This document shows, one piece after another, positions 15,811 through 32,564 of a DNA stretch of 64,000 bases; the first letter of the stretch is position 1, and each line of letters starts with the position of its first letter. Made by a program: the position numbers and the translations under genes. The notes below the pieces were generated by a model. That model was given only the letters and a program-made list of their open reading frames with translations. It ran no database searches and was not told the origin of the DNA. The DNA comes from an uncultured Chloroflexia bacterium (lineage in GTDB: Bacteria > Chloroflexota > Limnocylindria > Limnocylindrales > CSP1-4). Location of the stretch: the NCBI GenBank assembly GCA_963813535.1, contig CAWEZH010000003.1, forward strand, positions 896,001 through 960,000, read 5' to 3'.

Positions 15811-17307
15811 CTATCCGGGGAGGGTGGAGATCGCGGCCGCGGCGCCCTTCACGATGTCGAGCAGTGGCGTGGGGACGAGACCGAAAAGGATCGTGAGCGC
15901 GGTCGCCGCCGCGAGCCCGCCCCACAGCAGCGCGCCATGACTGGGGGCCGGAGCGTCGCTCTCCGGGTCGCGCATGTACATGTACACCGCCACGCGGAGG
16001 TAGTAGAAGGCGGCGGCCGCCGCATTCAGCACGACCAGGACGGCGAGCGCGGTGAGCCAGCCGCCCGCCTGCACGGCAGCCAGGATCACGTAGGCCTTCG
16101 CCCAGAACCCGGCCAGCGGCGGGATCCCGGTGAGCGACAGCAGGAAGAGCAGCATCAGCGCGCCGAGCAGCGGCTCGCGGCGCCCGAGCCCGGAGAACGT
16201 CGCGAGCCCGGACGTGACACCGGTCCGCTTCTGGAGCGCAGCCACCACGGCGAACGCGCCGAGGTTCATGAACGTGTACGCCGCGCCATAGAACAGCAGC
16301 CCCTGCAGCCCGAGCACCTGGCCACCGGCATAGGCGGCCAGCCCGACCAGCATGTAGCCGGTGTGGGCGATCGAGCTGTACGCCAGCATCCGCTTCACGT
16401 TGTCCTGGGTCAGTGCCACGAGGTTGCCGACGGTCATCGTGAGGGCGGCCAGCACCATGATCACGGGCAGCCACCAATCGGACAGCGGTCCGAGCGCCTC
16501 GACGAACAGTCGCAGGATCAACGCGAACGCGCCGACCTTGGGGCCGACCGACAGGTAGCCGGTGATCGGCGTCGGCGAGCCCTGGTACGCGTCGGGTGTC
16601 CAGTAGTGGAACGGGACTGCCGCGATCTTGAAGGCGACGCCGGTCGTCAGGAACGCGAGGCCGATCGCCAGCCCCGGCTGGAGCGGTGCGGCACCGGCGA
16701 CGATGGCCTGCAGCCACTGCGCGATGCCCGGACTCGCCGGGTCGTTGCTGTTGATCAGCGTGGTGCCGGTCAGGCCCCACACGAAGGCGAGGCCGAAGAG
16801 GAAGATGGCCGAGCTGAACGAGCCGAGCAGGAAGTACTTGATGGCGCCCTCGGTCGAGTAGGCGTCGGTCTTGTGGTAGCCGGCGAGCAGGTAGCCGGGC
16901 AACACCATGAGCTCGAGTCCGAGGAACATCAGCAGCAGGTCGGCCGCGCCGGCGATCAGCATCGCGCCGGTCATCGCGAAGACGAGCACGATGGCGAACT
17001 CGGCGATCGGCAGATTGCGTGGTAGCAGGTAGTCCGGTGCGAATACGATCGTCATCGCCACGATCGAGATGAACAGCACGTCGAGGAACGTCGTCAGCGC
17101 ATCGACCTTGTACGAGCCGCCGAACGCGGTGGCCGTCTCCGCCCCGACCGAGATCGTGACCAGGGTCGTGATGGCGAGCCCGATCAGCGCGGTCGCGATG
17201 GCCGGCCCGTCGCGTCCCGGCCATACGAGGTCGACGATCAGGATCGCTGCCGCGGTCAGCACCGCGGCGATGAGCGGCGAGATCGTGACGAGATCGGCGA
17301 AGTTCAA
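15811..17307 (-). CDS. nuoN: NADH-quinone oxidoreductase subunit N
   Basis: EGAIKYF, FKIAAVPFHYWTPDAYQGSPTP, KRMLAYSSIAH and SLTGIPPLAGF motifs. Confidence 0.95.
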   Translation of the reverse strand: MNFADLVTISPLIAAVLTAAAILIVDLVWPGRDGPAIATALIGLAITTLVTISVGAETATAFGGSYKVDALTTFLDVLFISIVAMTIVFAPDYLLPRNLPIAEFAIVLVFAMTGAMLIAGAADLLLMFLGLELMVLPGYLLAGYHKTDAYSTEGAIKYFLLGSFSSAIFLFGLAFVWGLTGTTLINSNDPASPGIAQWLQAIVAGAAPLQPGLAIGLAFLTTGVAFKIAAVPFHYWTPDAYQGSPTPITGYLSVGPKVGAFALILRLFVEALGPLSDWWLPVIMVLAALTMTVGNLVALTQDNVKRMLAYSSIAHTGYMLVGLAAYAGGQVLGLQGLLFYGAAYTFMNLGAFAVVAALQKRTGVTSGLATFSGLGRREPLLGALMLLFLLSLTGIPPLAGFWAKAYVILAAVQAGGWLTALAVLVVLNAAAAAFYYLRVAVYMYMRDPESDAPAPSHGALLWGGLAAATALTILFGLVPTPLLDIVKGAAAAISTLPG

Positions 17308-18959
17308 TGCGCGCCTCCGCCCTCGACGACGGCAACGCCGGATTCGCGGCGACGGGCCGTCGCGACCACGATGGTCCTCCCCAGCACCAGCAGGATGACG
17401 AGACCGAGAGCGCCGACGACGACCTCCGGCCCGACCGCGATGGCCTGGCCGCCCCGAGCCGCCGCCAGCACCTCGATGACCGAGCCCTGGACAAGCGTCA
17501 ACAGCAGTCCGGGCTGGACGCCGAACACGACGATGAGGGTCGCGAGCGGCACCAGCGTGAGCAACTCGATCGGCGTGATGTCGGTCAGGCGACCGCCCAG
17601 ATCGGCCAGGAACTCGGACAGCTCACCGAAGACCACCCGCTGGTACATGAACAGCAGATAGCCAGCCGCGAGGATCATGCAGAACGTGGCGATCGCCGCC
17701 GCCGCGGGGCTCACGAGGAACGTCCCGACGAGACTCAGGAACTCGCCCACGAACCCCGACAGGCCGGGCAGGCCCGCCGACGCGAACACGAAGAAGCCCA
17801 TCACCGCGGCCCACACCGGGGTTCGCGCCGCAAGCCCACCCATCTTGGCGATCGTCCGGTCGTGGGTGCGCTCGTAGATGACCCCGACCAGCAGGAAGAG
17901 CCCGCCCGTGATGAGGCCGTGGTTGATCATCTGGAGGATGGCGCCCTGGACGCCCTGCTCGGTGAACACGAAGATGCCGAGCGTCACGAAGCCCATGTGG
18001 CTGACCGACGAGTACGCGACGAGTCGCTTCAGGTCGGGCTGGACGAGCGCCACGATCGCGCCGTAGATGATCGCGATCAGCGAGAGCACGATGATCGTCG
18101 GCGCGAACGTCACCGCCGCGTCCGGGAACAGCGGGAGCGCGAAGCGCAGGAACCCGTACGCCCCGAGCTTGAGCAGGATGCCGGCCAGGATGACCGAGCC
18201 CGCCGTCGGCGCGTCGGTGTGCGCGTCGGGCAACCAGGTATGGAACGGGAACATCGGGACCTTGATCGCGAATGCGAGGAAGAACGCCAGGAATGCCCCG
18301 ACCTGGAGCGCCGGCGCGAACCCGGCCCCCGCGGCGAAATCGCGGAGCGCCACGAAGTCGAAGGCGTTCGTCCAGGTCCCGGTCGTGGACTGGTAGGCGA
18401 ACGCCGTGGCCAGGATCGCCACCAGCATCAGCAACGACCCGACGAGCGTGTACAGCACGAACTTGATCGTCGAGTAGATGCGGTTCGCGCCACCCCAGAT
18501 CCCGATGATCAGGTACATCGGGACAAGCACGATCTCCCAGAAGATGTAGAAGAGGAACAGATCCAGGGCGAGGAAGACGCCGATCATCCCGACCTCGAGG
18601 ACGAGGAACGAGATCATGTATTCCTTGATGCGGGTCTGGATCGGGACCCACGACGCGAGGATGCAGATCCATGTCAGCGTCGTGGTCAGCACGACCAGCG
18701 CCGCCGACAGGCCGTCGGCGCCCAGCTTGTACTGGATGCCGAACACGGGGATCCAGTCGTAGGCCTCGACGAACTGGAACTGGCTGCCCGCGCGGCCCGG
18801 CAGGTAGTCGACCAGCATGACCAGCGACACGACCCAGGCCGCCAGCGCGAACCCGAGCGCCACCGGTCTCGTCCAGCGACTGGGCAGGATCGCCACGACG
18901 AGCGCGCCGATCAGCGGCAGGAAGGTGATGAGCGTCAGGATCCCGAACGGCAGGGTCAT
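17304..18959 (-). CDS. nuoM: NADH-quinone oxidoreductase subunit M
   Basis: FYIFWE, KVPMFPFHTWLPDAH, LKLGAYG and DLKRLVAYSSVSHMG motifs. Confidence 0.95.
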   Translation of the reverse strand: MTLPFGILTLITFLPLIGALVVAILPSRWTRPVALGFALAAWVVSLVMLVDYLPGRAGSQFQFVEAYDWIPVFGIQYKLGADGLSAALVVLTTTLTWICILASWVPIQTRIKEYMISFLVLEVGMIGVFLALDLFLFYIFWEIVLVPMYLIIGIWGGANRIYSTIKFVLYTLVGSLLMLVAILATAFAYQSTTGTWTNAFDFVALRDFAAGAGFAPALQVGAFLAFFLAFAIKVPMFPFHTWLPDAHTDAPTAGSVILAGILLKLGAYGFLRFALPLFPDAAVTFAPTIIVLSLIAIIYGAIVALVQPDLKRLVAYSSVSHMGFVTLGIFVFTEQGVQGAILQMINHGLITGGLFLLVGVIYERTHDRTIAKMGGLAARTPVWAAVMGFFVFASAGLPGLSGFVGEFLSLVGTFLVSPAAAAIATFCMILAAGYLLFMYQRVVFGELSEFLADLGGRLTDITPIELLTLVPLATLIVVFGVQPGLLLTLVQGSVIEVLAAARGGQAIAVGPEVVVGALGLVILLVLGRTIVVATARRRESGVAVVEGGGAH

Positions 18960-20947
18960 CCGCGGTTCCCGGCGAGCAGCAGGTAGGAGCCGGCCATGAC
19001 CAGCAGACCGATGGCGATGCCAAGCGCGTAGTTCTGGACATGGCCCGTCTGGACGCGTCGGATACCGCGGCCCGCGCCGACCGTCGAGCTGCCGATGGCG
19101 TTGACGGTGCCATCGACGACCTCACGGTCGAACCACCAGATCGCCTGGGCGAGCCGTCCGCCGATGACGATGAACAGCAGGTGGTAGAGCTCGTCGAACC
19201 ACCACTTGTTGAGGGACGCGCGGTACAGGAACGCCAGACCCGGCCGCGCGCTGACTTCGCGCACGACCTCGGGCCGCGCGGGCAGGTGGATCCCGCCGAT
19301 GTCGAGGCCGAACAGCCGCCATGCGAGGACGAGGCCGATGACCGCGACGGTCACGCTGGCCAGGATCAGCCCACCGTCGACGCCGAACAGCTGGTACTCC
19401 TCGTGGGGCAGGTGGAGCAGCTCGGTCGCCTCATGGAAGACCGGCTCGAGCCACTCGTGCAGCCGGCTGTCGCCCAGCGGGGTGCCGAGCAGCAGCCCCA
19501 GGAGCACCGACGGGATAGCCAGCAGGATCAGCGGCACGGTCATGACCGCCGGCGACTCGTGGATGCGATCCCAGATCTCCTTGGGGCCGCGGAAGACGCC
19601 CCAGAACGTCAGGCCCATGAGCCGGAACATGTAGAACGCGGTCAGCAGGGCGACGAACAGGCCGATCCCCCAGACCCAGTAGAAGCCGAACTTGAACGCC
19701 TCGCCGAGGATCTCGTCCTTCGAGAAGAAGCCTGCCAGGGGCGGGATGCCCGAGATGGCGATCGAGCCGATCAGCATCGTCACGTAGGTGATCGCGATCT
19801 TCGGCGCCAGTCCACCCATCCGGCGCATGTCCTGCTCCTCGTGGACCGCGTGGATGACCGAGCCGGAACCGAGGAACAGCAGGCCCTTGAAGAAGCCGTG
19901 GGTCATGAGGTGGAAGATCGCGGCCGTGAATGCTCCGACCCCAAGGGCCGCGAACATGTACCCGAGCTGTGACAGCGTCGAGTAGGCGAGGACCCGCTTG
20001 ATGTCGGTCTGGGTCATCGCGATCGAGGCGGCCAGGATGGCCGTGAATATCCCGATCGCCGCGACCACGACCATCGCCGACGGCGCGGCCGCGAACAGCG
20101 GATTGGCGCGGGCGACCAGGTACACGCCGGCGTTGACCATCGTCGCGGCGTGGATCAGCGCCGACACCGGCGTCGGGCCTTCCATCGCATCGGGCAGCCA
20201 CACGTGGAGTGGGAACTGGGCGCTCTTGCCCATCGCCCCGGCGAACACGAGCAGGGCGACGATCGGCACGGGGATCGGGAAGGCGACGAGCGTCGGGTCG
20301 AGCATGATCTCGATCGAGTGGCGCACGTCCAGGGTCCCGGTGTTCAGGAAGATGGCCATGATGCCGAGCGCGAAGCCGACGTCACCGACGCGGTTGACGA
20401 TGAACGCCTTCTTGGCGGCAAGCGCCGCGGATCGCTTCCGGTACCAGAAGCCGATGAGCAGGTAGCTCGACAGTCCGACCAGCTCCCAGGCGACGAACAC
20501 GACCAGCCAGTTGTCGGCCAGGACGAGCAGCAGCATCGAGAACATGAACAGGTTCAGGTACGCGAAGAACCGCCAGTAGCCCGGGTCGTGGGCCATGTAC
20601 CCGATCGAATAGACGTGAACGAGCAGGCCGATCGTCGTCACGACGATCAGGAGGCAGGCCGTGAGCGGGTCGACGAACAGGCCGAGGGTCACCTGGAAGC
20701 CACCGGCCGGGATCCACGTCCACGGCCCGACGGCGTAACCGTGGAGATCCTCGGTGCCCTCGATCAGCGGGGCCGTACCGGTCAGGACGTTGACCACGGC
20801 GACCATCGCGATGATCCAGGCGATGAAGATGACGCCGACGGGGACCCAGTGGGCCTGCTTCCCGAGCCGCCGCCCGACGAGCGCGGTGAACAGGAAACCC
20901 GCCATCGGCAAGACGAGCAGCAGCGGCAGCAGCCCTTCGATCGTCAC
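18956..20947 (-). CDS. nuoL: NADH-quinone oxidoreductase subunit L
   Basis: GKSAQFPLHVWLPDAMEGPTPVSALIHAATMV, HGFFKGLLFL and QTG.VQNY motifs. Confidence 0.97.
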   Translation of the reverse strand: MTIEGLLPLLLVLPMAGFLFTALVGRRLGKQAHWVPVGVIFIAWIIAMVAVVNVLTGTAPLIEGTEDLHGYAVGPWTWIPAGGFQVTLGLFVDPLTACLLIVVTTIGLLVHVYSIGYMAHDPGYWRFFAYLNLFMFSMLLLVLADNWLVVFVAWELVGLSSYLLIGFWYRKRSAALAAKKAFIVNRVGDVGFALGIMAIFLNTGTLDVRHSIEIMLDPTLVAFPIPVPIVALLVFAGAMGKSAQFPLHVWLPDAMEGPTPVSALIHAATMVNAGVYLVARANPLFAAAPSAMVVVAAIGIFTAILAASIAMTQTDIKRVLAYSTLSQLGYMFAALGVGAFTAAIFHLMTHGFFKGLLFLGSGSVIHAVHEEQDMRRMGGLAPKIAITYVTMLIGSIAISGIPPLAGFFSKDEILGEAFKFGFYWVWGIGLFVALLTAFYMFRLMGLTFWGVFRGPKEIWDRIHESPAVMTVPLILLAIPSVLLGLLLGTPLGDSRLHEWLEPVFHEATELLHLPHEEYQLFGVDGGLILASVTVAVIGLVLAWRLFGLDIGGIHLPARPEVVREVSARPGLAFLYRASLNKWWFDELYHLLFIVIGGRLAQAIWWFDREVVDGTVNAIGSSTVGAGRGIRRVQTGHVQNYALGIAIGLLVMAGSYLLLAGNRG

Positions 20948-21035
20948 GCCGAACGACCCTGCACGCCGCCCGAACTACCCTGCGTGCTGGCGGACGGCCG
21001 TTCGGCGGCACGCCTTTCTGACCACAGCGGCTCGT

Positions 21036-21353
21036 TCACTGGCGCATCGAGTCGTATTCGTCGACTAGCGGGGTCTTCTTGTTGCGATAGATCGCGATGA
21101 CGATCGCCAGGCCGACGGTCGCCTCGGCGGCTGCGACGGCCATGACCATCAGCGCGAAGACCGCGCCCTGGGCTGTCGCGTCGGCGCGTGGCCCGAACAA
21201 TCCGAACGCCACGATGCTCAGGTTGACCGCGTTCAGCATCAGCTCGATCGACATGAGCATGCTGATGGCGTTGCGCCGCGCCAGGAACCCGAACGAGCCG
21301 ATGGCGAACAGGATCCCGGACAGGATCAGGTAGGTGTCGAGACTGTCGCTCAC
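21036..21353 (-). CDS. nuoK: NADH-quinone oxidoreductase subunit K
   Basis: [14 protein letters not shown] and [11 protein letters not shown] motifs. Confidence 0.95.
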
Positions 21354-21943
21354 GACGGCCCGCCAGGCTCGCGCTTCGCCAGGAAGATGCCGCCGATCAC
21401 CGCGGCGAGTAGCAGCACGCTCACGATCTCGAACGGGAACACGAACTGCTGGAACAGGACGCGCGACATGATCGACGTGCCGAGTCGAGCGTGGCGCGCG
21501 GCCTCACCCCAATCGGTCGCGCTGACCGCCAGGGCGATGACCACGGCGATGACGATCGCCGCGATCGATGCGGGCCCGGCCTGGGTCTGGAACACCAGCC
21601 GGCTCGGGGCGTCCTTCGTCTGCGTGAGCATGATCGCGAACAGGATCAGGACACTGATCGCGCCGATATAGATGATGACCTGGGCCGCGCCGAGGAGCGC
21701 GACGCCCATCAGGACGTAGATCCCGGCCAGGGCCATGAAGCAGACGATCATCGCCAGACCGCAGCGGATGATGTCGCGCATCGTCACGACCAGCAGACCG
21801 CTGAAGATCATCACCGCCGCCAGGATCCAGAGCAGGACGTCCTCCCAGTCCTGGTGTAGGGCGATGAGCATCAAGGCGGCGACCCCGAAGACCGCGCCCA
21901 TGAGCAGGAGCGCGAGGATGATCTGGGGGAGCTTCGCGAGCAC
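21350..21943 (-). CDS. nuoJ: NADH-quinone oxidoreductase subunit J
   Basis: [19 protein letters not shown] and [15 protein letters not shown], plus an extra N-terminal hydrophobic helix. Confidence 0.9.
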
Positions 21944-21945
21944 GG

Positions 21946-24594
21946 CTACTCGTGATGGCCGGGCCCGAGCGCGGCGACCGCGCCGTGCCCGTCATGGCCG
22001 TGTCCGTCGTGGCCATTGCCGTTCGGGCGGCCCGGCGGGAGCCCAGTTATCGTCGGTGGGAGGACCGGCAAAAGGCGAGCCGGGTCGTATACCCGGCCCT
22101 CGGCCTGCGCCCTGCTCAGCCAGTCGCGTTCGCGGCGGATATAGGTGACCTCGGTCTCCTTGTCGATCTCGGCGAGGGCTATCAGGTCGATGATCGGCTC
22201 GGACCGGCCGGTGTGGGCGAGCTCGAAGTCGGCGCCGTCGCGCAGGGCGTCGTACGGGCACGCATCCACGCAGATCCCGCAGAGGATGCAGCGGCTCTCA
22301 TCGACCTCGTACTTCTCGAGGATGCGCGGCTTCGGCATCAGCGCGCCGGTCGGACACGTCTCCGCGCAACGCCCGCACGACACGCACGGTGTGTCGTTGA
22401 GGCTCATGTCGAGCGGGGTCGTGACCAGCGTGTCGAAGCCGATCCGCATGAAGTCGTAGCACGCGGCGCCGACGACCTCTGCGCACACGTTGGCGCAGCG
22501 CCCGCAGTCGATGCAGCGCGACGGCTCGCGCAGGATGAAGGCGTGGGAGTCGTCGCGGATGTAGTCGTGGTTGATGCCGGTGAACCGGTTCTCGGTGACC
22601 GAGCGGTAGCCGGCCCCCTGGTGGTGCTGCGGCTCGAGCGTGGCAAGCGTCGTCGAGTACTCGATGCCAAGGCGTCGGAGGTCGCAGAAGCCGATGGCCT
22701 CGCAGGTGCACTGCAGGCAGCGGGTCGACTCGGCCATCGCGGCTTCGCGGGTGTACGGGAGCTCGTATTCGATGTAGCTGTGATTGCGCTCCTCGGCCGG
22801 TAGTGGCGTCAGCCGATAGCGGGGTTCCTTGATCTCCGCGGTGAACGGCACGATCGACAGGAACTCGGGCTGCGGCTCGGCGAGCGTCTGGCGGGTCCTG
22901 ATCGCGTCCAGGTCCATGCCCTTGAGGTAGGCGTCGACGGCGTACGCCGCGCGGCGGCCCTCGGCCACGGCCTCGACCACGGTCGCGGCGCCGATGCGGA
23001 CGTCGCCCGTACCGAAGACGCCGGGCCGACCGGTCGAGAACGTGACGGCGTCGGCCTTGAGCCGACAATTCTTGGTCGGCTCGACACCCTCGTTACCCGG
23101 CGCGCCGACCCAGTCGAGCTCCGGGCCCTGGCCGATGGCAAGCAGCACGCGATCGCAGGGGATCGTGAACTCGGTGCCCGACGCAGGCTCGGGTCGCCGC
23201 CGGCCGGACGCGTCCGGTTCGCCGAGCTGCATCCGGATGAACTCGACACCCGTGACCTTGCCCGTCTTCTCGTCGACCAGGACCCTCGTGGGACCGGCCT
23301 GGAAGATCGCCGTCACGCCCTCCTCGATCGCCTCGTGCACCTCGTCGGCCGCCGGCATGTCCTTCATGTCGCGCCGATAGACGAGGGTCACCTCGCTGGC
23401 GCCCTGGCGGACCGACGTCCGCGAGCAGTCCATCGAGGTGAACCCGCCGCCGATGACCACGACGCGCTTCCCGGCGTGGCCCGGATAGGGCAAGCCGAGC
23501 GTGGCCGTGCGCAGGTACTCGAGACCGTCGATGACGCCGTCGGCGTCCTCGTTCGGGATGCCGAGCTCATTGGTGTCGTAGCAGCCGATCGCGATGACGA
23601 CCGAATCGAAGCCCTGGTTGGTCAGGTCGTCGAGCGTGAAATCGCGACCCAGACCGGCGTCACACACCATCTTCGCGCCGAGCCGGACGACCGACTCGTA
23701 TTCCGCCTCGAGCACCTCGACCTTCGGCAGCCGGTACTGGGGGATGCCGTAGCGGAGCATGCCGCCCGGCGCCGGGTCACGCTCGAAGACGGTGACCTCG
23801 TGGCCGGCGATGAGCAGGTAGTAGGCGGCGGCCATGCCGGCCGGTCCGGAACCGATGACCGCGGCCCGCCGGCCGGAGCCGACCTGCTGCTCGAACGGGA
23901 CCGGCGGATCGACGCCGTCGTCGAGCATCGACTTGAGGACCTGGTCGCCGGCATAGCGGTGCGTGTCGCGGATGGCGATCGCCTCGTCGACCTCGTCGCG
24001 CCGGCAGTGCTCCTCGCACGGCGCCGGGCAGACCCGCCCGAGGACCGACGGGAACGGGATCGTCCGCTTGAAGATCCGTGTGCTCTCGCGCCAGTTCCCC
24101 TCGGCGTTGGCCTTGAGGAAGCCCGGGATATCGATGTGACTCGGGCACTTGTTCTGGCACGGCGGGAGGCAGTACGCGTTGTGGTCCGAGAAGATCAGCT
24201 CGAGGTTGGTGCGCCGCAGCCGACGGACCTCCTCGGTCTGGGTCTGGACCTTCATCCCGTCCTCGCAGGAGCGCGAGCACGAGATCGGCGGGTGCTCCTC
24301 GCCCTCGACCTCGACGACGCACATCCGGCACGCGCCGAAGCCCGGCAGCTTCGGCTCGTAACACAGGGTCGGGATCTCGATGCCGTTGTCGCGGCAGACC
24401 TCGAGGATCGTCTGACCCTCGAAGCCCTCGACGACGCGGCCATCGACCTCGATCCGGATGCGCGGCGTCGACTGTGGTCGCTGCGGCGACTGCGTGTCGA
24501 GCAGGCGTTCCGCGAGCGATGCGCGGGTCGTCGCCGGTGTCGATGCCTCGATCTCGGCGGGTCGGCCCTCGGGGCGGGCGAGGGTATCGGTCAT
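21946..24594 (-). CDS. NuoG-N/GltD-like (StnC/SfrB-like) FAD-FeS NAD(P)H oxidoreductase carrying the C-terminal half of NuoI; in-frame with the upstream NuoF-like region in this assembly
   Basis: IPTLC..GACRMCVVE..SC ([2Fe-2S]); H..YCLPPC...CP, GRVCPAPCE..C, GSGPAG, GGMLRYGIP, GGGFTSMD, VYRR, RCLQCTC, CIDCGRC and CVSCGRC..CP; then YEVDESRCILCGICVDACP..FE. A likely internal ATG at 24594 has GAGG upstream. Confidence 0.85.
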   Translation of the reverse strand: MTDTLARPEGRPAEIEASTPATTRASLAERLLDTQSPQRPQSTPRIRIEVDGRVVEGFEGQTILEVCRDNGIEIPTLCYEPKLPGFGACRMCVVEVEGEEHPPISCSRSCEDGMKVQTQTEEVRRLRRTNLELIFSDHNAYCLPPCQNKCPSHIDIPGFLKANAEGNWRESTRIFKRTIPFPSVLGRVCPAPCEEHCRRDEVDEAIAIRDTHRYAGDQVLKSMLDDGVDPPVPFEQQVGSGRRAAVIGSGPAGMAAAYYLLIAGHEVTVFERDPAPGGMLRYGIPQYRLPKVEVLEAEYESVVRLGAKMVCDAGLGRDFTLDDLTNQGFDSVVIAIGCYDTNELGIPNEDADGVIDGLEYLRTATLGLPYPGHAGKRVVVIGGGFTSMDCSRTSVRQGASEVTLVYRRDMKDMPAADEVHEAIEEGVTAIFQAGPTRVLVDEKTGKVTGVEFIRMQLGEPDASGRRRPEPASGTEFTIPCDRVLLAIGQGPELDWVGAPGNEGVEPTKNCRLKADAVTFSTGRPGVFGTGDVRIGAATVVEAVAEGRRAAYAVDAYLKGMDLDAIRTRQTLAEPQPEFLSIVPFTAEIKEPRYRLTPLPAEERNHSYIEYELPYTREAAMAESTRCLQCTCEAIGFCDLRRLGIEYSTTLATLEPQHHQGAGYRSVTENRFTGINHDYIRDDSHAFILREPSRCIDCGRCANVCAEVVGAACYDFMRIGFDTLVTTPLDMSLNDTPCVSCGRCAETCPTGALMPKPRILEKYEVDESRCILCGICVDACPYDALRDGADFELAHTGRSEPIIDLIALAEIDKETEVTYIRRERDWLSRAQAEGRVYDPARLLPVLPPTITGLPPGRPNGNGHDGHGHDGHGAVAALGPGHHE

Positions 24595-25887
24595 CGAGGC
24601 GGCCTCGGGGGCGACCGGTGTGGGTCGGCTGGCAGGGTCGAAGGCGGACTCGAAGTATCGCATCCCACTCGTGAGCGGGAGCGTCGCCAGCCGCTCGTGG
24701 TCGCATAGCGCCGACGCGACGATGTCGTGGCTGAGGTCCGCGGCGAGCTGGCCGTCGGCCGGCCGGAGCAGACCGGCTTCGCGCCGATCGACGATCTCGG
24801 CGAGTCGCTTGGTCCCGATCCGACACGGGATCGACTTGCCGCACGCCTCGTTCGCGCAGAACCGGGTCAGCACCCCGACGAGCTCGAGGAGGTCTGTGCG
24901 GTCGTCGACGACCACGAGCGACCCGGATCCGAGATGGGCACCGGCCGAGCGCAGGCTGTCGAACTCATACGGCGTGTCGAGGGCATCGGGTGGCAACAGC
25001 CCGCCCGATGGCCCGCCGATGAGCACCGCCTGCATCGAGCGCCCGTCCGGCAGCTTCCCGCCGAGCTTGAGCACCTCGCGCAGCGGCGTGCCGAGCGGGA
25101 CCTCGGCCACGCCGTCCTTGCCCGGCGTGCGGATCTGGACCAGCACCGTGCCGGGCGCGTGGGTCGAGCCGGTGGCGCGGAACGCGTCGGGTCCCTGCCG
25201 CAGGATCCACGGCACGGCGGCGAGGGTCTGGACGTTGTTGACGACGGTCGGTCGATCGAACAGGCCGACCTCGGCCGGGTGCGGCGGTCGCTGCTCGGGC
25301 TGGCCCCGCTTGCCCTCGAGCGCCTTCAGGAGGACCGTCTCCTCGCCGAGCATGTAGGCGCCCTGCACGGGGCGGACCGAGAGCCACAGCTCTCGGCCGG
25401 AGGCGAGGATGTCATCGCCGAGGAACCCGGCGTCGGTGGCGTGGCCGATGGCGGTCGAGAGGGCGGCGATGACCTCGGCATCCTCACCGCGGACGGCGAT
25501 GAAGGCTTCTGTCGCGCCGATCGCGGTGGCGGCGATGGCCGTGCCCTCGATGACGGCGTACGGGTCCCGGAGCATCAGGGCACGGTCCGTGTGCGAGGCG
25601 GGATCGGCGCCGTAGCCGTTGGCGACGACGTAGCGCCTGTCCGCCTCGGTCGAGGCGGCCGTCCGCCACTTGTCGCCGGTCGGATAGCCGGCACCACCGC
25701 GACCGCGAAGTCCGGACGCGCTGATGACCGCGATGGTCCCTGCGCCGCCGAGGTCCCGCACGGCCCGTTGGAGCCCCTCGAAGGCGCCATCGGCGACGGC
25801 GGCATCGAGATCCGTGGGGTCCCTGACGTCGGCCCTCGCCAGCAGGATGCGCGGCCAGGCGGCCGGCGTCCGCAGGATCGTCACCAT
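24595..25887 (-). CDS. nuoF: Degenerate NuoF-like (51 kDa FMN-binding) subunit; runs without a stop into the downstream GltD-like region
   Basis: SGLRGRGGAGYPTG.KW, GAYMLGEET.L..LEGKRG.P, PTVVNNVQTL, GGPSGG and EACGKSIPCRIG motifs. Confidence 0.8.
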
Positions 25888-25888
25888 G

Positions 25889-26566
25889 TCAGGCGCGGGC
25901 CGGCGCGCCCGGGCGACCGCCTCCCTCGAGCGCGGCGCCGAGCGCCTCCACGTAACTCGATTCCGATGGCCGGTGCCGCTCGACCGCGGCGGCCTGGTCG
26001 GTGGCCGTCGGCGGCTCGAAGCGCAAGTGCGCGTAGTAGGTCGCCGTCCCGTAGATCATCGCGTACCACGCACCCGTGGCGTGACTGATGCGCTTGAGCG
26101 CCGCGACCGGCAGGTAGCCGTACGCCGTCTGGGTCGCCTCGAGGATCTCCAGCATGCGCGCGGGGTCGTGGTCGAAGTCCACGAGGATCCGGTCCACCTC
26201 GGCCATGTCGATCGGGTGGTACGGGCTGAATGCCGGGTCGGGTACCGGTCGGCCCGATCGGCGCAGGGCCAATTCCTCGCGCCGCTCGCCATACGTCTCG
26301 GGGGCGCCCCAGTGGACGTGGTAGCGGCCGCGGGTATCGATGCCGCCCATGTCGATGCACTCGATCGGGCAGGCCTGGGCGCACTGGAAACACGTCTCGC
26401 ATTTGAGCGTGCCCCATTCGTCGTAGAGCAGCTGGAGCCGCCCGCGGAACTTGCTCGCGACCTCGGCGGGCACCTCCGGGTACATCACGGTGGCCTTGGG
26501 CTCGAAGAAGCGCCGAAGCGTCAGCGCCATGCCCTTGGCGATGCCGAGACCGGGGATGAAGGTCAT
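25889..26566 (-). CDS. Fusion of the NuoI N-terminal half (single CxxCxxCxxxCP) with the NuoE N-terminal helical domain (no 2Fe-2S domain)
   Basis: GMALTLR..T.MYPE..FRG..KCETCFQCAQACP.ECI, followed by LEILEATQTAYGYLP..AL..I....IYGTATYY. Confidence 0.85.
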   Translation of the reverse strand: MTFIPGLGIAKGMALTLRRFFEPKATVMYPEVPAEVASKFRGRLQLLYDEWGTLKCETCFQCAQACPIECIDMGGIDTRGRYHVHWGAPETYGERREELALRRSGRPVPDPAFSPYHPIDMAEVDRILVDFDHDPARMLEILEATQTAYGYLPVAALKRISHATGAWYAMIYGTATYYAHLRFEPPTATDQAAAVERHRPSESSYVEALGAALEGGGRPGAPARA

Positions 26567-26569
26567 CGC

Positions 26570-27917
26570 CTACCGACCGATCACGACGATCGCCGCCGCC
26601 GTCACGAACAGGTTGAGCAGCGATGCCGGCAGCAGCCACTTCCAGGCGAAGCTCATCAGCTGGTCGATGCGGACTCGCGGCAAGCGTGCCGCGCATCCAG
26701 ACGAACGTGAACACGAGGGCGTACGTCTTGAGCATGAACCAGAGGATACCGGCGACCCACGGCAGCCCGATGAACGCCCACGCGCCGACCAGCGCGACGA
26801 TGAACAGGTTGGCCAGCACGAACCCGGCGAGCAGCGCCTGCCACCACTTGATGCTCGAGCGCAGCAGCCAGAACGGGGCCCCGAACAGGAGCGTCAACAC
26901 GACTGGCGCGATGCCCACGATGAACAGCAGCCCGATGTTGAACGACGCCGGGTCGAGGCTCAGCTGGACCTGCCATGCCTCGGGCAACGCGAACGGCGCA
27001 TTCCATCCGCCGAGGAACAACGTCACGAAGAGCGCCGACACGATGAACACGTTCACGTACTCGGCGAAGAAGAAGAACCCGAAACGCATGCCCGAGTACT
27101 CGGTCGCGAAGCCGGCGACGATCTCGGAGTCGGCCTCGGTCAGGTCGAATGGGGTCCGGTTCGCCTCCGCGGTCGCCGCGATGAAGAAGATGAGTGCGCC
27201 CAGTGGTTGCTGGAAGATGTACCAGTCGGTGAACCAGCCTTGCTGGTTCTCGACCAGCGTGTTCAAGCTCATCGTCCCGGCCAGCAGCAGCAGTCCCACG
27301 ACCGACAACGCGAGCGGGATCTCGTAGCTCACAACCTGCGCCGCGGCTCGCAGGCCGCCCAGCAGCGAGTACTTGTTGTAGCTCGACCAGCCGGCCATCA
27401 ACAGGCCGACGACGGACAGGCCGCCGATCGCGAAGAAGTACAGCAGTGCGAGGTTGAGGTCGTAGCCGAACAGGCCCGGCGCGAACGGGATGACCAGCAG
27501 CGTCAGGACGCTGGCCAGGTACACGACCACCGGCGCCCAGGTGAAGACGACCGAATCGGCGCCGGTCGGGGTGAAGTCCTCCTTCATCAGGACCTTCAGC
27601 CCGTGCACCACCGAGAGCAGCGAACCGTACGGTCCGACCCGGTCGGGCCCGATCCGAAGATTCATCAGCGCGATGATCTTCATCTCCATATAGATGATCA
27701 GGAACGCGGTCGGGATGGTCATCAGCAGGATCACCGTCACCGCGACGACGAACCGGACGATCGGCAGATTGGCCACCAGGACGTCGATCACTGCCTGGCC
27801 GAACAGCTGGATCACCAGGATCAGCCCGACCGTGAGCAGGATGAGCAGCGGGACGGCGATGAAGACGACCTTGCCCGGCAGCGTCAGCCGACTCCACCCG
27901 CGACCGATGACCGTCAT
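26570..27917 (-). CDS. nuoH: NADH-quinone oxidoreductase subunit H (1-bp frameshift near 26682, probably an assembly error)
   Basis: RIGPDRVGP, KEDF, NKYSLLGGLR..AQ..SYE and NRTPFDLTEADSE. The C-terminus PRVRIDQLMSFAWKWLLP continues in another frame to a TAG at 26570. Confidence 0.92.
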
Positions 27918-27942
27918 GCGTCCGAACTACCTTGCGCGTCGC

Positions 27943-28043
27943 GGGGCGAGTCGAGGCCAAGGCGCCGGCGAGCAGGGGAGCGAGCGTAGCCCGAGCTACG
28001 TGAGCGACCCAGCGCAGCCGGCAACGCCGGCATCGGCCGTCCC
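27943..28043. repeat. ~100-bp structured intergenic repeat (REP-like), copy 2
   Basis: Lies between nuoD and nuoH; homologous to 13283-13380 and 47711-47807. Confidence 0.8.
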
Positions 28044-28062
28044 GTGGCGCGCCGGGCGACCG

Positions 28063-29315
28063 TCACTTATCCACTCCGCCCATGATCGGGTCGAGGACGC
28101 CATGACCGCCATCGTGTCCGCGACCAAGTGCCCGGGCATGAGGACGCCGACCGACTGAAGGTGCAGGAACGACGGGTCGTGGATGCGCATCCGGAACGGC
28201 TGGTCGGTCCCGTCGCTGATGGCGTATGTCCCGTACTGGCCGCGCGGCGCCTCGATGCCGACGTACGCGCGTCCCGGACGCGGCCGGAGGAGCCGCGGCA
28301 GCTTGGCCATGATCGGACCGTCCGGCATCTGGTGGAGACACTGGTCGATGATCCGCAGGCTCTGCTTGATCTCGTCCATCCGCAGTAGATAGCGGGCCAG
28401 GCAGTCGCCCTCCGTCCGCGTCGGGATGTCGAAGTCCAGCTCCGGATAGATCGAATACGGGTGCGCGCGGCGCATGTCGAACGGCACGCCCGTCGCCCGC
28501 AGGTTCGGCCCACTCATGGTCATCCGGAGCGCCGTCTTCGAGTCGATCGTGCCCAGGCCCCGCATCCGGCGGACGAAGATCTCGTTCTCGTTGAGCAGCG
28601 CGTTACCGGCCTCGATCTGCTCGGTCGCGTGACCCATCCAGTCGCCGAGCCGGCTCATGAACTCGTGGTTCAGGTCGCCGTTGACGCCGCCGATGCGGAA
28701 GTAGTTGAAGAGCATCCGCTGACCGGTCAGCGAGGCGAGCATCTCGACGATCTCGTCGCGTTCGATGAACGACCACAGGATCGGTGTGAGTCCGCCGAGG
28801 TCGAGTGCCATCCAGCCCAGGAACAGGGCGTGGCTGGCGACCCGGTTCAGCTCGCCAGACAGCACGCGGATGTACTCCGCGCGCCGGGGCACCTCGACGT
28901 CGAGCAGCTTCTCGAACGCCATGACGCCGGGCCATTCGCAGAAGAGGGAGCTGACGTATTCGAGGGGGTCGAGGTAGCAGATCGCCTGGTGGTAATCGGC
29001 GTTCTCGCACAGCTTCTCGACGCCGCGATGGAGGTAGCCGAGGACCGGATCGAGGTCGACGACCTTCTCGCCGTCGAGCTTGAGCACGACGCGCAGCACG
29101 CCGTGGGTCGAGGGATGCTGCGGTCCCATGTTGAGGAACATCTCGCCATCGCGGAGCGTGTAGAACTCGGCCTCGCGCTCGGTCCGCGGCGGGTACGGCG
29201 GGATGGGCTCGAAGACACCCGCGTCCTGGTCGAGCTTGATGCGCGGGTCGTCCGGCGAGCCGGCGAAGAACTCGTCGTGCTGCTGGGCACCGGGCCGGGG
29301 CGTGGTCGTGGTCAT
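28063..29315 (-). CDS. nuoD: NADH-quinone oxidoreductase subunit D (frameshift near 28095, probably an assembly error)
   Basis: NMGPQHPSTHGVLR, GYLHRGVEK and EAPRG. The expected end LDPIMGGVDK* is in the alternative frame ending at 28063. Confidence 0.93.
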
Positions 29316-29334
29316 CGCAGGTCCTTCATACCCG

Positions 29335-29883
29335 TCACGCGCCGATGCGCCGGACGGTTCCGGCCTTCGGGGTCACGCGTGGCTGTTGGGTGCGCTCCAT
29401 GGGCCGGACGCCGGCACCGGGCGATCGGGCGGCGTCGTCGGCGAGGTAGAAGTCCTTCCGAAGCGGGAAGCTCTGGTAGTCGGGTGGCATGTAGATGCGG
29501 CGCAGGTCGCGGTTGCCCTCGAACGTGATACCGAACATGTCGTACGCCTCGCGCTCCATCCACTCGGCGCCCTTCCACATGAAGGTCACCGATGGGACTC
29601 GCGGATCCTCGCGCGACAGGCCGTCGGCGATGACCCGCAGCCAGTCGGGCGTCGTCGGGCTCCAGAGGTGGTAGACGACCTGCATGACCTCGCCGGTGTC
29701 GACGCCGCACAGGTCGGCGAGGAACTCGAACGCGAATTCGGGTTCGTCGTGCAGCGACGTGATCACGGGCACGACGTCGCCGGCGCCGATCCTGATCTCG
29801 GTCTCGTCATGTCGCTGTCGGACCGGCCCCGTCAGCTGCTCACCGAAGCGCCGCTCGAGGCGTGCCTTGAATGCGCGATCCAT
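29335..29883 (-). CDS. nuoC: NADH-quinone oxidoreductase subunit C
   Basis: DLCGVD and W.GAEWMEREAYDMFGI.F.G..DLRRI..P....FPLRKDF motifs. Confidence 0.93.
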   Translation of the reverse strand: MDRAFKARLERRFGEQLTGPVRQRHDETEIRIGAGDVVPVITSLHDEPEFAFEFLADLCGVDTGEVMQVVYHLWSPTTPDWLRVIADGLSREDPRVPSVTFMWKGAEWMEREAYDMFGITFEGNRDLRRIYMPPDYQSFPLRKDFYLADDAARSPGAGVRPMERTQQPRVTPKAGTVRRIGA

Positions 29884-29885
29884 GA

Positions 29886-30644
29886 TCAGACTTCGGCGGG
29901 GACGGTCGGCCCGATCGGCCGCTCGGGCCAGTGGCCGCGCCGATCCTTGATGAGTTGCTGCAGCTTCATCATCCCGAAGATGAGCCCCTCGGGCCGCGGC
30001 GGGCAGCCGGGCACGTAGACATCGACGGGCATGACCCGGTCGATTCCCTCGACTGTCGAGTAGCTCCGCTTGTAGCGGCCCCCCGAGCACGTACAGTCGC
30101 CCATCGCGACGCACCACTTCGGCTCGGGCATCTGCTCCCAGAGACGGACCAGCGGGCCGGCCATCTTGGTGGTGAGCGTGCCGGCGACGATGAGCACGTC
30201 CGCCTGCCGGGGACTCGCCCGGAACGGGAACATGCCCCAGCGGTCCATGTCGTTCTTCGACGTCGCCGCGGACATCATCTCGATCGCGCAGCAGGCCAGA
30301 CCGGACAGCAGGGGCCACAGGCTGTTCATCCGGATCAGGTCCAGGACATAGTCAGCCTTGGTCGGGATGACCTCGAGCGGCCCGCTCCACCGGGCATTGT
30401 CCCGACGGGACTCAGCGCTCGCCTCGAGCTCGGCGAGGTGGGTGATGTCGGTCGGCCGGCCACCGTCATAGGCAGCCGGGTCGGCAGCCTGCCACAGCAT
30501 GTTGGGCACGACGATCGGCGAGATGACGTCGTCGGCCGGCCGCTTTGCGGGCACCGGCGGCTGCGACGGGACGTCCGAGGAGATCTGGGTCGCGTCGGAC
30601 GATCCAGCACCGAGCCCGTCGCGGTTGGCCCTTCTCACCGCCAC
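29886..30644 (-). CDS. nuoB: NADH-quinone oxidoreductase subunit B
   Basis: [28 protein letters not shown] and VPGCPPRPE motifs. There is a long N-terminal extension and the start is uncertain. Confidence 0.93.
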
Positions 30645-31000
30645 GTCAGGGCTCCCTTCCGCCAGGCATACGCGAGGCCAAGCAGGAGGATCACGACGAA
30701 CACGACCATGCTGATGAACAGCCCGGCCGGGTTGAGGCTCGGGTCCTTGAACACGATGGCCCAGAGGTAGATGAAGATCACCTCGATGTCGAACGCGACG
30801 AACAGCAGCGCGTAGATGTAGAACGACAGCCCGAACCGTCCGTGGGTATCGCCGTACGTGTCGATGCCCGACTCGTACGGGAGGCCCTTGTGCACGTCGC
30901 CTTTGTTCCGATGGGAGACGAGCCACGCCGCGGCGATCGTCCCGAACACGAACGTCACGCCGGCGAAGGCGAAGCCCACGACGTACCAGAGCTGTTCCAA
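30635..31000 (-). CDS. nuoA: NADH-quinone oxidoreductase subunit A
   Basis: [17 protein letters not shown] and [10 protein letters not shown] motifs. Confidence 0.95.
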
Positions 31001-31364: not shown

Positions 31365-32564
31365 CTAGTCGGCAGCGCCTCGCGTGCCTCGCGGGAGACG
31401 ATACGCGAGGACCCTGAGCGGGGCATCGGGCGGCCACGCGCGACCGAACACCATGACCCGGAACCGACCCATCGCGGCAGGGTCGAGCAGACGCATGAGG
31501 GCCGATCGAAGAAGGGTGTAGTCCTCCAACGTCGTGGCCGGGTCCGCCTGGATCTCGCGCAGCCGATCCTCGACGCCGAGACCCATCAGCGCCTCGGCCT
31601 GGGTCGTGATCCCGAGGGTGGTCAGGCCGGCTGCCTCGGCCGCCCGCCGGACCGCGGTCACGTCCACGTGCGCAGTGAGGTCCTGCCGACCGACGAGCCG
31701 GTACGGGTCGTCGCTGACCTGGTGGCGGACATACGCGCGCAGCGTGCCATCCCGGCGACGAAGCGGGTCGTACAACTCCTGGGCGATGGCGCCGTAGTCG
31801 ATCAGGAGCGCGAGTCCGCGGCGCAGTGGCGCGACCGCCGATGCCACCCAGTCGTCGATCGCGAGGCAGATCTCCGCCGTCTGGCCGGTCGCGAGCTCGA
31901 TGCCCTCCGCGTCCAGCCGTGCCGCGAGGTCCGGCGTCGTCGGTTCGACCTCGACCTCGACGAATGCACCGTCCGCCGCGACATCGACGGCGAGCTCGCG
32001 CAGCCCACCCTCCCCGAAGCGGACGCGATGGACCGGCAGCGCGTCGAGCACCTCGTTGGCGATGACTACGCCGTCGAACGGGGCATCGGGCAGGTGGTCG
32101 TCGAGCCGATCGGCCAGCCCGGCTGCCTCGAGTCTCGCGCGCAGCCTCGCCAGGCGTCGGGCGTCGACCTCGATCGGTGCATATCGGATGGCCGGCGGCA
32201 GCGCCCGCAGCAACGGGACGGCCAGTGACCCCTCGCCTGCGCCGTGCTCGACGACGACGAACCGGGCGGGCTCGCCCAAGGCACGCCACGTGTCCTCGAC
32301 CGCCCGCCCGAGCAGCTCGCCGACCATCGGGTGCAGCTCCGGGGCGGTCAGGAAGTCGCCGCCGCGGCCGGGCCGGGCTTCGGCCGAGCGGTAGTAGCCG
32401 CCGTCCGGGTCGTATAGCGCACGCTCCATGAACCGCGCGAACGGCATGGGTCCATCCCGCCGGATCTCGTCCCGGATGCGGTCGGCGAGCACGGCGTTCT
32501 CACGCAGATCCGACAGGTCGATCGGCGCCTCGCGGCGGAGCCCGGGTTCGAGTGGCCTCACCAT
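31365..32564 (-). CDS. SAM-dependent methyltransferase, MidA/NDUFAF7 family
   Basis: GPMPFARFMERALY....GYY, GDFLTAPE, EHGAGEG, IANEVLDALP, IDYG and GRQDLTAHVD motifs. Confidence 0.9.
   Translation of the reverse strand: MVRPLEPGLRREAPIDLSDLRENAVLADRIRDEIRRDGPMPFARFMERALYDPDGGYYRSAEARPGRGGDFLTAPELHPMVGELLGRAVEDTWRALGEPARFVVVEHGAGEGSLAVPLLRALPPAIRYAPIEVDARRLARLRARLEAAGLADRLDDHLPDAPFDGVVIANEVLDALPVHRVRFGEGGLRELAVDVAADGAFVEVEVEPTTPDLAARLDAEGIELATGQTAEICLAIDDWVASAVAPLRRGLALLIDYGAIAQELYDPLRRRDGTLRAYVRHQVSDDPYRLVGRQDLTAHVDVTAVRRAAEAAGLTTLGITTQAEALMGLGVEDRLREIQADPATTLEDYTLLRSALMRLLDPAAMGRFRVMVFGRAWPPDAPLRVLAYRLPRGTRGAAD

Follow-up and report, generated by a model that had tools for sequence, protein, structure and literature searches.

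In the 64,000-nucleotide stretch of an uncultured Chloroflexia bacterium analyzed here (hereafter the window; GenBank assembly GCA_963813535.1, contig CAWEZH010000003.1, positions 896,001 to 960,000), a nuo operon for complex I is encoded on the minus strand in the order nuoA-B-C-D-H, three inserted genes, and nuoJ-K-L-M-N (Pfam; 15811-31000). Between nuoH and nuoJ, where nuoI is expected, the listing of open reading frames (ORFs) contains a 225-amino-acid (aa) ORF (25889-26566) and a 1313-aa ORF (21946-25887). The 225-aa protein has only one CxxCxxCxxxCP motif, which is followed by a match to the NuoE family. In the large ORF, NuoF-like domains (Complex1_51K, NADH_4Fe-4S) are followed by domains of the 2Fe-2S, GltD-type FAD/NAD(P)H, and NuoG-type ferredoxin-like kinds, in this order, and by a last Fer4 motif. 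The nuoI gene is cut in two around a three-gene NAD(P)H module, and no intact nuoI is present elsewhere in the genome to serve the complex. The features of this insertion are as follows, with the large ORF given as the two genes that it most likely represents (see below).

25889..26566, minus strand: small fusion protein, 225 aa, NuoI N-terminal half plus NuoE/NfnC-like N-terminal helical domain (NuoI models and PF01257)
26342..26533, minus strand: NuoI N-terminal half (TIGR01971 positions 1-63; 48.9 bits)
26366-26401, minus strand: CxxCxxCxxxCP motif of the small protein (C56, C59, C62, C66, P67)
26009..26194, minus strand: NuoE-like N-terminal domain (PF01257 positions 2-63 of 145; E 4.7e-08)
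24595..25887, minus strand: NuoF/NfnB/StnB-like flavoprotein core, 431 aa as read (PF01512, PF10589)
21946..24594, minus strand: NfnA/StnC-like protein, 882 aa (Pfam, NCBIfam)
24235-24462, minus strand: 2Fe-2S domain of the 882-aa protein
22918-24171, minus strand: GltD FAD/NADPH domain of the 882-aa protein
22684-22719, minus strand: CxxCxCx5C of the 882-aa protein
22351-22515, minus strand: ferredoxin motifs A and B of the 882-aa protein
22186..22326, minus strand: NuoI C-terminal half (TIGR01971 positions 71-117; 44.3 bits), KYEVDESRCILCGICVDACPYDAL...FELA, in which motif C is C769-P780 of the 882-aa protein

NuoI in two halves

The small protein matches only the N-terminal half of NuoI, with residues 9-82 falling on positions 13-87 of the 180-position model NF004536, and residues 12-75 on positions 1-63 of the 121-position model TIGR01971 (48.0 bits for the protein alone). 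When the final 165 residues of the large ORF are scanned alone, TIGR01971 ranks first among NCBIfam families (E 1.7e-16, 59.9 bits, model positions 71-117). A canonical NuoI (P0265) compared by BLASTP aligns with the small protein through its residues 3-71 (48% identity over 69 residues, E 3e-18), and with the C-terminal stretch of the large ORF through its residues 36-156 (30% identity, E 3e-15). NuoI model positions 1-63 and 71-117 are thus found on two genes. A preliminary description of this locus, made from its letters alone, had read the 225-aa gene as the first half of NuoI switching to the N-terminal part of NuoE, which the NuoI and PF01257 matches confirm. It had also placed the second half at the end of a large flavoprotein; the position is right (22186-22326), although the "flavoprotein" turns out to be two genes.

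A whole-genome search with TIGR01971 gave seven matches, none of which exceeds the curated cut-off of 113.05 bits. The two best are the two halves (48.9 and 44.3 bits), and the next, elsewhere in the genome, scores 27.2 bits. There is one nuoH locus, and the only other NuoE-, NuoF-, and NuoG-like genes of the genome lie 500 kb away on contig 3 (418619-424333), beside a formate-dehydrogenase-like gene. The nuo operon of the window is therefore the sole complex I of this organism, and the earlier statement that no intact nuoI occupies the nuoI position extends to the whole genome as searched with this profile. The NuoG/formate-dehydrogenase-like match near 418619-424333 contains one in-frame TGA, which could encode selenocysteine or be another assembly error.

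Gene models and frame errors

The 1313-aa ORF arises because a surplus base at about 24597 joins a NuoF-like gene (24595-25887) to the gene that follows it (21946-24594). This base precedes an ATGA overlap, and the stop codon of the NuoF-like gene is lost in the window. In all six relatives compared, the NuoF-like gene (~430-450 aa) and the next gene (~850-885 aa) are separate, their stop and start overlapping as ATGA. Alignment of the junction shows the base as extra in the window against 6/6 relatives, including one that is ~95% identical over 241 bases and whose small protein is 97% identical to that of the window. Three-frame translation revealed two further breaks: nuoD misses one base near 28094, its true C-terminus (...LDPIMGGVDK) lying in another frame, and nuoH has one extra base near 26682-26684, with a frame change near its 3' end. 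Both genes are intact in the six relatives' loci that were fetched, where they end in ...LDPIMGGVDK and ...LLNLFVTAAA..., respectively. All ten core families (NuoA, B, C, D, H, J, K, L, M, and N) are present in order in one operon (Pfam), so that the operon is otherwise canonical, as first described, except that nuoD and nuoH are frameshifted as assembled.

Contigs of four public metagenome runs (X1-X4) were aligned to 21900-29400; these runs share at most 0.30 of the sampled words of the stretch and represent near relatives or strains, not the source reads. The base at 24597 is left out in the one contig that bridges this site (run X4), one base is omitted at 26682 or 26684 in runs X1, X2, and X3, and a base is inserted behind 28094 in runs X1 and X3. 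Judging from these comparisons, errors in the consensus of a long-read assembly most likely account for all three frame breaks, and the real inserted unit most likely comprises three genes, which encode the small fusion protein, the NuoF-like protein, and the 882-aa protein. All three single-base errors fall within 4 kb, and none of them causes the split of nuoI. Programmed frameshifting was rejected as an explanation for the three sites, because the relatives have no frame change there. Other genes of this genome may carry similar indels.

Origin of the inserted genes

The preliminary description proposed that a cassette resembling NuoE, NuoF, and NuoG had been inserted into nuoI. The gene order fits this proposal, and can be written as H-[I-N::E']-F'-[G'::I-C]-J, where I-N and I-C are the NuoI halves, E', F', and G' the NuoE-, NuoF-, and NuoG-like parts, and the double colon a fusion. 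The source, however, appears to be different: by homology, the inserted cassette is a trimmed homolog of NfnABC/StnABC (Bfu) and not a NuoEFG derivative. Among the NuoEFG models, TIGR01959 scores 338 bits (cut-off 559) and TIGR01958 18.9 bits (cut-off 142), and the NuoG model TIGR01973 reaches 96 bits (cut-off 470) through its positions 1-98 only.

Compared with solved chains, the NuoF-like protein corresponds to residues 104-509 of the 584-aa NfnB (9bov_B, E 6.6e-93). It is closest to the B subunits of Bfu enzymes (9bov_B, HydB, and 8oh5_B), with NuoF of complex I more distant. It retains the flavin loop RGRGGAGYP and the GEET stretch and lacks the N- and C-terminal cluster domains of NfnB. 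The 882-aa protein matches NfnA (9bov_A) over residues 4-697 (E 2.8e-160), through motifs A and B, and StnC (8oh5_C) over residues 3-700 (E 1.9e-141); in both of these enzymes motifs A and B are complete. Its GltD domain keeps GSGPAG, GGGFTSMD, and a YRR stretch, which we take to be the FAD and NADPH sites. [quoted passage not shown] Every cluster cysteine of the 882-aa protein, including those of motifs A, B, and C, is invariant in 19/19 sequences that share 45-91% identity and represent both cassette types (those embedded in nuo operons and the paralogs described below). The tail of this protein is rich in Gly and His (GNGHDGHGHDGHG...GPGHHE; 21949-22032, minus strand), a feature present in the genus and absent from the sister family and the paralogous cassette.

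In the small protein, the PF01257/NuoE match is limited to model positions 2-63 of 145, without the 2Fe-2S thioredoxin-like domain. An AlphaFold2 (AF2) model of this protein on its own has predicted local distance difference test (pLDDT) values of 72-95 (means of ten-residue blocks) over residues 121-177 and below 50 over residues 35-116. The NuoE-like part reaches 81-95 in this model and the NuoI N-terminal part 33-45, a difference that we count in favor of the two-chain reading given below. A Foldseek search, informative only for the confidently modeled NuoE-like domain, gave NfnC (9bp5_C) as its best match (39% identity over 66 columns, root-mean-square deviation 1.1). C56, C59, C62, C66, and P67 are invariant in all 15 aligned sequences, which cover both cassette types at 26-88% identity. 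The thioredoxin-like/2Fe-2S domain of the small protein has been deleted in the genus of the window. In the sister family (L023, L024, and P0125) the small protein is 279 aa long and keeps the thioredoxin-like domain, where Ser takes the place of the fourth of the usual 2Fe-2S cysteines and the other three are retained.

The accessible part of the StnABC structure report (PMC10482914) describes StnC, which was solved with six [4Fe-4S] clusters, as consisting of a 2Fe-2S domain (1-101), a GltD domain (102-565), NuoG-like clusters, and an inactive FdhF-like domain (683-1172) that is needed for the tetramer. Electrons are described there as passing from FAD-NADPH through C7, C6, C5, C4, and C3 to the flavoprotein, while a side branch of C2 and C1 has no known role in that account (PMC10482914). 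This idle branch appears, from the alignment, to be the point where the 882-aa protein continues into NuoI.

Conservation and a paralogous cassette

The small protein is found in 59 of 61 close-relative genomes, that is, in the window's own genome, in 34 of the 36 others of its genus, and in all 24 of the sister family, whose genomes are ~1.1 Mb. Gene order is the same through the cassette into nuoJ in the loci of four relatives, and the same up to the contig end in the other two of the six. A search of the protein database returned 2937 matches to the small protein at E up to 1e-5, under names that include "Candidatus Limnocylindrales bacterium" and with labels such as "ferredoxin" and "NAD(P)H-dependent oxidoreductase subunit E"; one match is labeled Patescibacteria, probably through a binning error. 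Across 201 Limnocylindria genomes at least 80% complete (45 genera, including 7 genomes flagged unpublished), TIGR01971 exceeds its cut-off in 5, and partial, half-length matches occur in 200. Of the five genomes in which NuoI is intact, G129 at least also has a match to the N-terminal half. The split of nuoI is, going by these profile matches, class-wide in Limnocylindria, which answers the call of the preliminary description for a survey of relatives, and it is ancient and widespread. A profile of the small protein run on 301 genomes of the phylum gave full-span matches in all sampled families of Limnocylindria (16/16, 2/2, and 15/15) and in other families with 4-7-Mb genomes (22/22, 6/6, and 5/5).

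Distant homologs of the small protein (~30% identity) further led to 80 loci, mostly labeled Limnocylindria or Chloroflexota. A paralogous cassette was found there, in metagenome-assembled genomes labeled Limnocylindria (L030, L051, L070, and L093) and in other Chloroflexota (L112, L113, L114, L067, and L074). In the Limnocylindria genomes it consists of NuoB-like, NuoD-like, [I-N::E'], F', and [NfnA-like::I-C] genes, and in three genomes of other Chloroflexota families only of NuoB-like, [I-N::E'], F', and [NfnA-like::I-C] genes. No membrane subunits are present nearby in the loci examined. A protein with the B-C-FEL pattern is encoded in 35 of the 36 paralogous loci that have at least 4300 bases downstream of the small gene, and the single exception, with 4492 bases downstream, may be cut. 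The paralogous cassette was not found in the window's own genome. In one complete genome, an isocitrate/isopropylmalate dehydrogenase gene (PF00180, E 3.6e-135; L112:6927-8129, minus strand) lies divergently just upstream of the four-gene cassette; a link to NAD(P)H supply would be a guess.

Proposed assembly of the N6a and N6b clusters

In folds with two [4Fe-4S] clusters, each cluster is ligated by three cysteines of one motif and by a single cysteine of its partner motif. The small protein has one four-Cys motif and the 882-aa protein three (A, B, and C). Because both counts are odd, any choice of pairs leaves at least one dicluster fold that has to draw on both chains. From these odd counts and the invariant cysteines we infer that N6a and N6b would be assembled in trans between two polypeptides, as had been suggested in the preliminary description; the suggestion gains from these data, and slightly from the complex model below, while keeping the standing of a prediction. 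By homology, motif A would pair with B, as in StnC, NfnA, and HydA with their CPTGA signature, and the motif of the small protein with C, as in NuoI. That the third motif is unpaired within its own chain, another point of the preliminary description, is in line with the homology to solved StnC and NfnA, but the spacing of B and C would also suit an internal dicluster domain.

Complex prediction with residues 1-120 of the small protein, residues 660-850 of the large protein, and four clusters gave a score of 0.46 (runs 0.41, 0.47, and 0.46), the best of three controls scoring 0.00, with at least 73% contact agreement between runs and a partner pLDDT of at least 51. The mark set for this score is reached by 58 of 80 solved complexes and by 2 of 110 mismatched pairs; passes with scores of 0.60 or less are those of only 7 of the 80 solved complexes and of both passing mismatches. 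NuoI being a solved fold, the pass may reflect structures on which the predictor was trained, and it weakly supports the modeled two-chain assembly.

In Thermus complex I, cluster N6b, the neighbor of N2, is bound mainly by the first NuoI motif, and N6a, the neighbor of NuoG, by the second. If the two halves behave in the same way here, each of them would be fused to the neighbor with which it exchanges electrons.

Proposed electron route and alternative readings

We propose that the input arm of this complex I is a trimmed NAD(P)H module of the NfnABC/StnABC type spliced into NuoI. The first half of NuoI, that is, the N-terminal helix and the first four-Cys motif, is fused to a NuoE-like helical domain that, by homology, holds the NuoF-like flavoprotein, and the second half forms the C-terminus of the NfnA/StnC-like protein, in place of the FdhF-like domain. 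The two halves would meet as one fold with two [4Fe-4S] clusters, N6a and N6b each taking cysteines from both polypeptides. NADPH would deliver electrons at the FAD of the GltD domain, and NADH probably at the FMN of the NuoF-like protein; the electrons would then run through the NuoG-like clusters to the two-chain NuoI, to N2 in NuoB, and to quinone, driving the proton pump. We infer the donors, the direction of electron flow, and proton pumping. Because the NuoE-like 2Fe-2S domain and both terminal domains of the flavoprotein are absent, the module is read as a probable non-bifurcating NAD(P)H dehydrogenase arm. We regard it as probable overall that such a trimmed Nfn/Stn-type arm is spliced into the NuoI of the sole complex I. 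The operon suggests an unreported electron route into the proton pump, probably also from NADPH. More tentative, and in our estimate somewhat short of an even chance, is the wider proposal that Limnocylindria complex I takes both NADPH and NADH directly, that NuoI was cut by the in-frame insertion of an Nfn/Stn-type operon, that N6a and N6b are ligated by two polypeptides, and that the NuoB cassette is a free-standing or dockable form of the arm.

Several observations weigh against this reading, and some of them favor other explanations. The window's copy has frameshifts in nuoD and nuoH and, if these were real, the complex of this strain would be broken; no RNA or protein evidence of expression was obtained, no RNA run being listed with the stretch among the public runs. 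With three single-base frame errors in 4 kb of assembly, the split itself could be imagined as a misassembly, or the operon as a pseudogene. This is scarcely credible, because the split is found with open frames in 59/61 relatives, many of them short-read assemblies, and across 45 genera, 2937 database proteins match the small protein, and the frame errors, of which the split is independent, are absent from relatives and public contigs; its presence in independent assemblies rules out misassembly as the cause of the 225-aa gene. The pairing of the motifs is open to more argument. The complex score lies in the weak band, no interface was returned, and no structure or contact map joins both halves; the AF2 model of the 882-aa protein (19-sequence alignment) has pLDDT values of only 22-46 over residues 573-882, which include motifs A, B, and C. 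B and C have a spacing of 22 residues and together match Fer4_7 end to end (1168-1214; model positions 2-52 of 52), as is likewise the case in L112, and the BLASTP alignment described above places the whole canonical NuoI core on B and C (30% identity, E 3e-15). An internal B/C pair is therefore possible. B and C would then form their own 2x[4Fe-4S] domain, and the small-protein motif would pair with A or bind a lone cluster with a non-cysteine ligand, leaving the complex wired through both proteins without NuoI being reconstituted as such. We find this pairing improbable, since A and B match StnC and NfnA position by position, with CPTGA after B, and since the fourth Cys of motif A (C704), which two clusters shared by A and B would require, is invariant in 19/19 sequences. 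Motif C is moreover flanked by residues specific to NuoI (KYEVDxxRC...FELA), with TIGR01971 as the top family there. The six [4Fe-4S] clusters with which StnC was solved (PMC10482914) would, by our own assignment, also need an A/B pair.

Other objections concern the electron donors. The NuoF-like protein has NGYGADPASHTDR where NfnB (9bov_B) has NADEGDPGAFMDR, and its N3 motif (24820-24850 region) reads CGKSIPC, with Ser for the second Cys, in 4/4 nuo-embedded (type-1) sequences. Because of these two replacements, NADH oxidation at the FMN may be altered or lost. In that case the NuoF-like protein and the NuoE-like domain would be structural remnants, the GltD FAD would be the sole entry, and the enzyme would be an NADPH:quinone oxidoreductase. 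Three observations would agree with this view: in neither cassette type is the acidic NADEGDPG loop of NfnB retained, other residues standing in its place; the NuoE-like part has lost its 2Fe-2S domain in the genus; and the GltD domain keeps its presumed FAD and NADPH sites. On the other hand, the flavin loop and GEET are retained, all four N3 cysteines are kept in the paralogous cassette (CGxCxPC or CAxCxPC in 8/8 sequences), and the NuoF-like gene is full length in every locus examined, so that we hold an NADPH-only enzyme to be unlikely, if less so than the internal B/C pair. The nearest solved relatives of all three proteins are the electron-bifurcating NfnABC/StnABC enzymes, and the module could in principle couple NADH, NADPH, and a third partner as a bifurcating enzyme or transhydrogenase, the Q-module replacing ferredoxin. 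This is very improbable. PF01257 ends at position 63 of 145, the flavoprotein spans only residues 104-509 of NfnB, and quinone as a high-potential acceptor would make bifurcation unneeded. The genome also contains PntB, for which reason a role of the module as a stand-in for a missing transhydrogenase was rejected. Judged by the accessible part of the Bfu report (PMC12018979), the module also lacks [2Fe-2S] C1 of NfnC and the C-terminal clusters B3/B4 of NfnB.

Comparison with known systems

Canonical NuoI (Nqo9/TYKY) is, like the two halves, encoded between nuoH and nuoJ, and shares with them the N-terminal helix, YPE, FRG, and two CxxCxxCxxxCP motifs, the second of which is followed by FELA. 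Here, in contrast, ~4 kb separates the motifs, which are on two polypeptides, each of them joined to an input-module subunit. Complex I ranks among the most thoroughly studied enzymes of bioenergetics, and, to our knowledge, NuoI is a single chain in every solved form of it. Unlike the NuoEFG module, the inserted genes include no separate 2Fe-2S NuoE, no NuoF above cut-off, and no molybdopterin-like NuoG.

The NfnABC/StnABC enzymes (Caldicellulosiruptor saccharolyticus 9BOV/9BP5, S. ovata 8OH5, and T. sibiricus 9N5U) consist of three proteins of the same order and kinds as the cassette, namely NuoE-like, NuoF-like, and 2Fe-2S plus GltD plus NuoG-like. The cassette differs from them in lying inside a nuo operon, in having the NuoI C-terminal half instead of the FdhF-like domain, and in lacking the terminal cluster domains of the B subunit and, in the genus, the NuoE-like 2Fe-2S domain. 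In the accessible part of the Bfu report, the bifurcation site consists of FMN, cluster B1, and [2Fe-2S] C1 of the NuoE-like subunit, and the low-potential path of C1 and B3/B4 of the C-terminal domain of the B subunit (PMC12018979). Since those cluster domains are lacking here, the Bfu bifurcation apparatus, so described, is absent.

Mbx-like operons of Thermotoga and proteobacteria also combine a GltD-type flavoprotein with a complex-I-like Q/P module at the place of NuoI, and this flavoprotein is reported to stand in for NuoI and to act as an NAD(P)+ reductase (Degli Esposti, 2015; PMC4758237). Compared by description, the operon of the window differs in that NuoI is kept but split, in having NuoE- and NuoF-like parts and a NuoG-like cluster chain, and in its full nuoA-N setting. 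The 12-subunit archaeal enzyme with FpoF and the 11-subunit complex I without NuoEFG resemble it in their 11-subunit core and in an entry other than NuoEFG; these enzymes, as far as the accessible text covers them, have NuoI as one undivided subunit, with an input module that is a separate protein or unknown (Moparthi and Hagerhall, 2011; PMC3144371).

A NuoI split with each half fused to an input-module subunit is present in none of the known systems compared. Full-text literature searches found no prior description of this architecture, most subscription journals and supplements being outside their reach. If the proposed reading is true, trans assembly of the N6a/N6b relay is feasible, a core subunit can accept a complete input module as a graft, and the NuoB-[I-N::E']-F'-[G'::I-C] cassette would be a living example of input modules joining the Q-module. 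The split is mechanistically suggestive, trans assembly and NADPH use being predicted from sequence. Its GltD-type FAD domain suggests that the module feeds respiration from NADPH, which would alter redox-balance models of Limnocylindria. Complete genomes of other Chloroflexota, such as G344 and G392, contain the NuoB-only cassette and so may offer a version amenable to biochemistry. Surveys that score individual subunits would find no NuoI over threshold and could call the complex I of this class incomplete.

Other features of the operon and genome

The genome that contains the window is 3.28 Mb in 3 contigs and 92.9% complete, and the G+C content of the window is ~70%. Database labels and soil and permafrost metagenome runs indicate soils as the habitat of the lineage. 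Scans of the window for tRNA genes and Rfam families gave no matches. The remaining genes of the nuo operon are as follows.

30635..31000, minus strand: nuoA (PF00507, E 3e-30)
29886..30640, minus strand: nuoB (PF01058, E 2.1e-26); start approximate, the listed ORF extending to 30926 and overlapping nuoA
29335..29883, minus strand: nuoC (PF00329, E 1.7e-37); start MDRAFK inferred from the 183-aa ORFs of relatives
28063..29315, minus strand: nuoD, frameshifted in the assembly (PF00346, E 1.9e-80; three-frame translation)
26570..27917, minus strand: nuoH, frameshifted in the assembly (PF00146 matches in two frames; three-frame translation)
21350..21943, minus strand: nuoJ (PF00499, E 1.2e-30)
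21036..21353, minus strand: nuoK (PF00420, E 1.5e-26)
18956..20947, minus strand: nuoL (PF00361, PF00662, PF01010)
17304..18959, minus strand: nuoM (PF00361, E 7.5e-78)
15811..17307, minus strand: nuoN (PF00361, E 1.2e-67)

The NuoB translation contains the stretches CCAIEMM, GDCTCSGG, and GCPPRPE, which may hold the cysteine ligands of N2, and the NuoD translation HPSTHGVLR and GYLHRG, which may hold quinone-site residues (His/Tyr). Directly upstream of nuoA is a methyltransferase gene of PF02636 (Methyltransf_28; 31365-32564, minus strand, E 2.3e-51), a family that we take to be MidA/NDUFAF7, which methylates an arginine of the NuoD homolog in mitochondria. A second PF02636 methyltransferase gene lies downstream of a paralogous NuoB-NuoD cassette (L093:13067-14212, E 1.1e-52).

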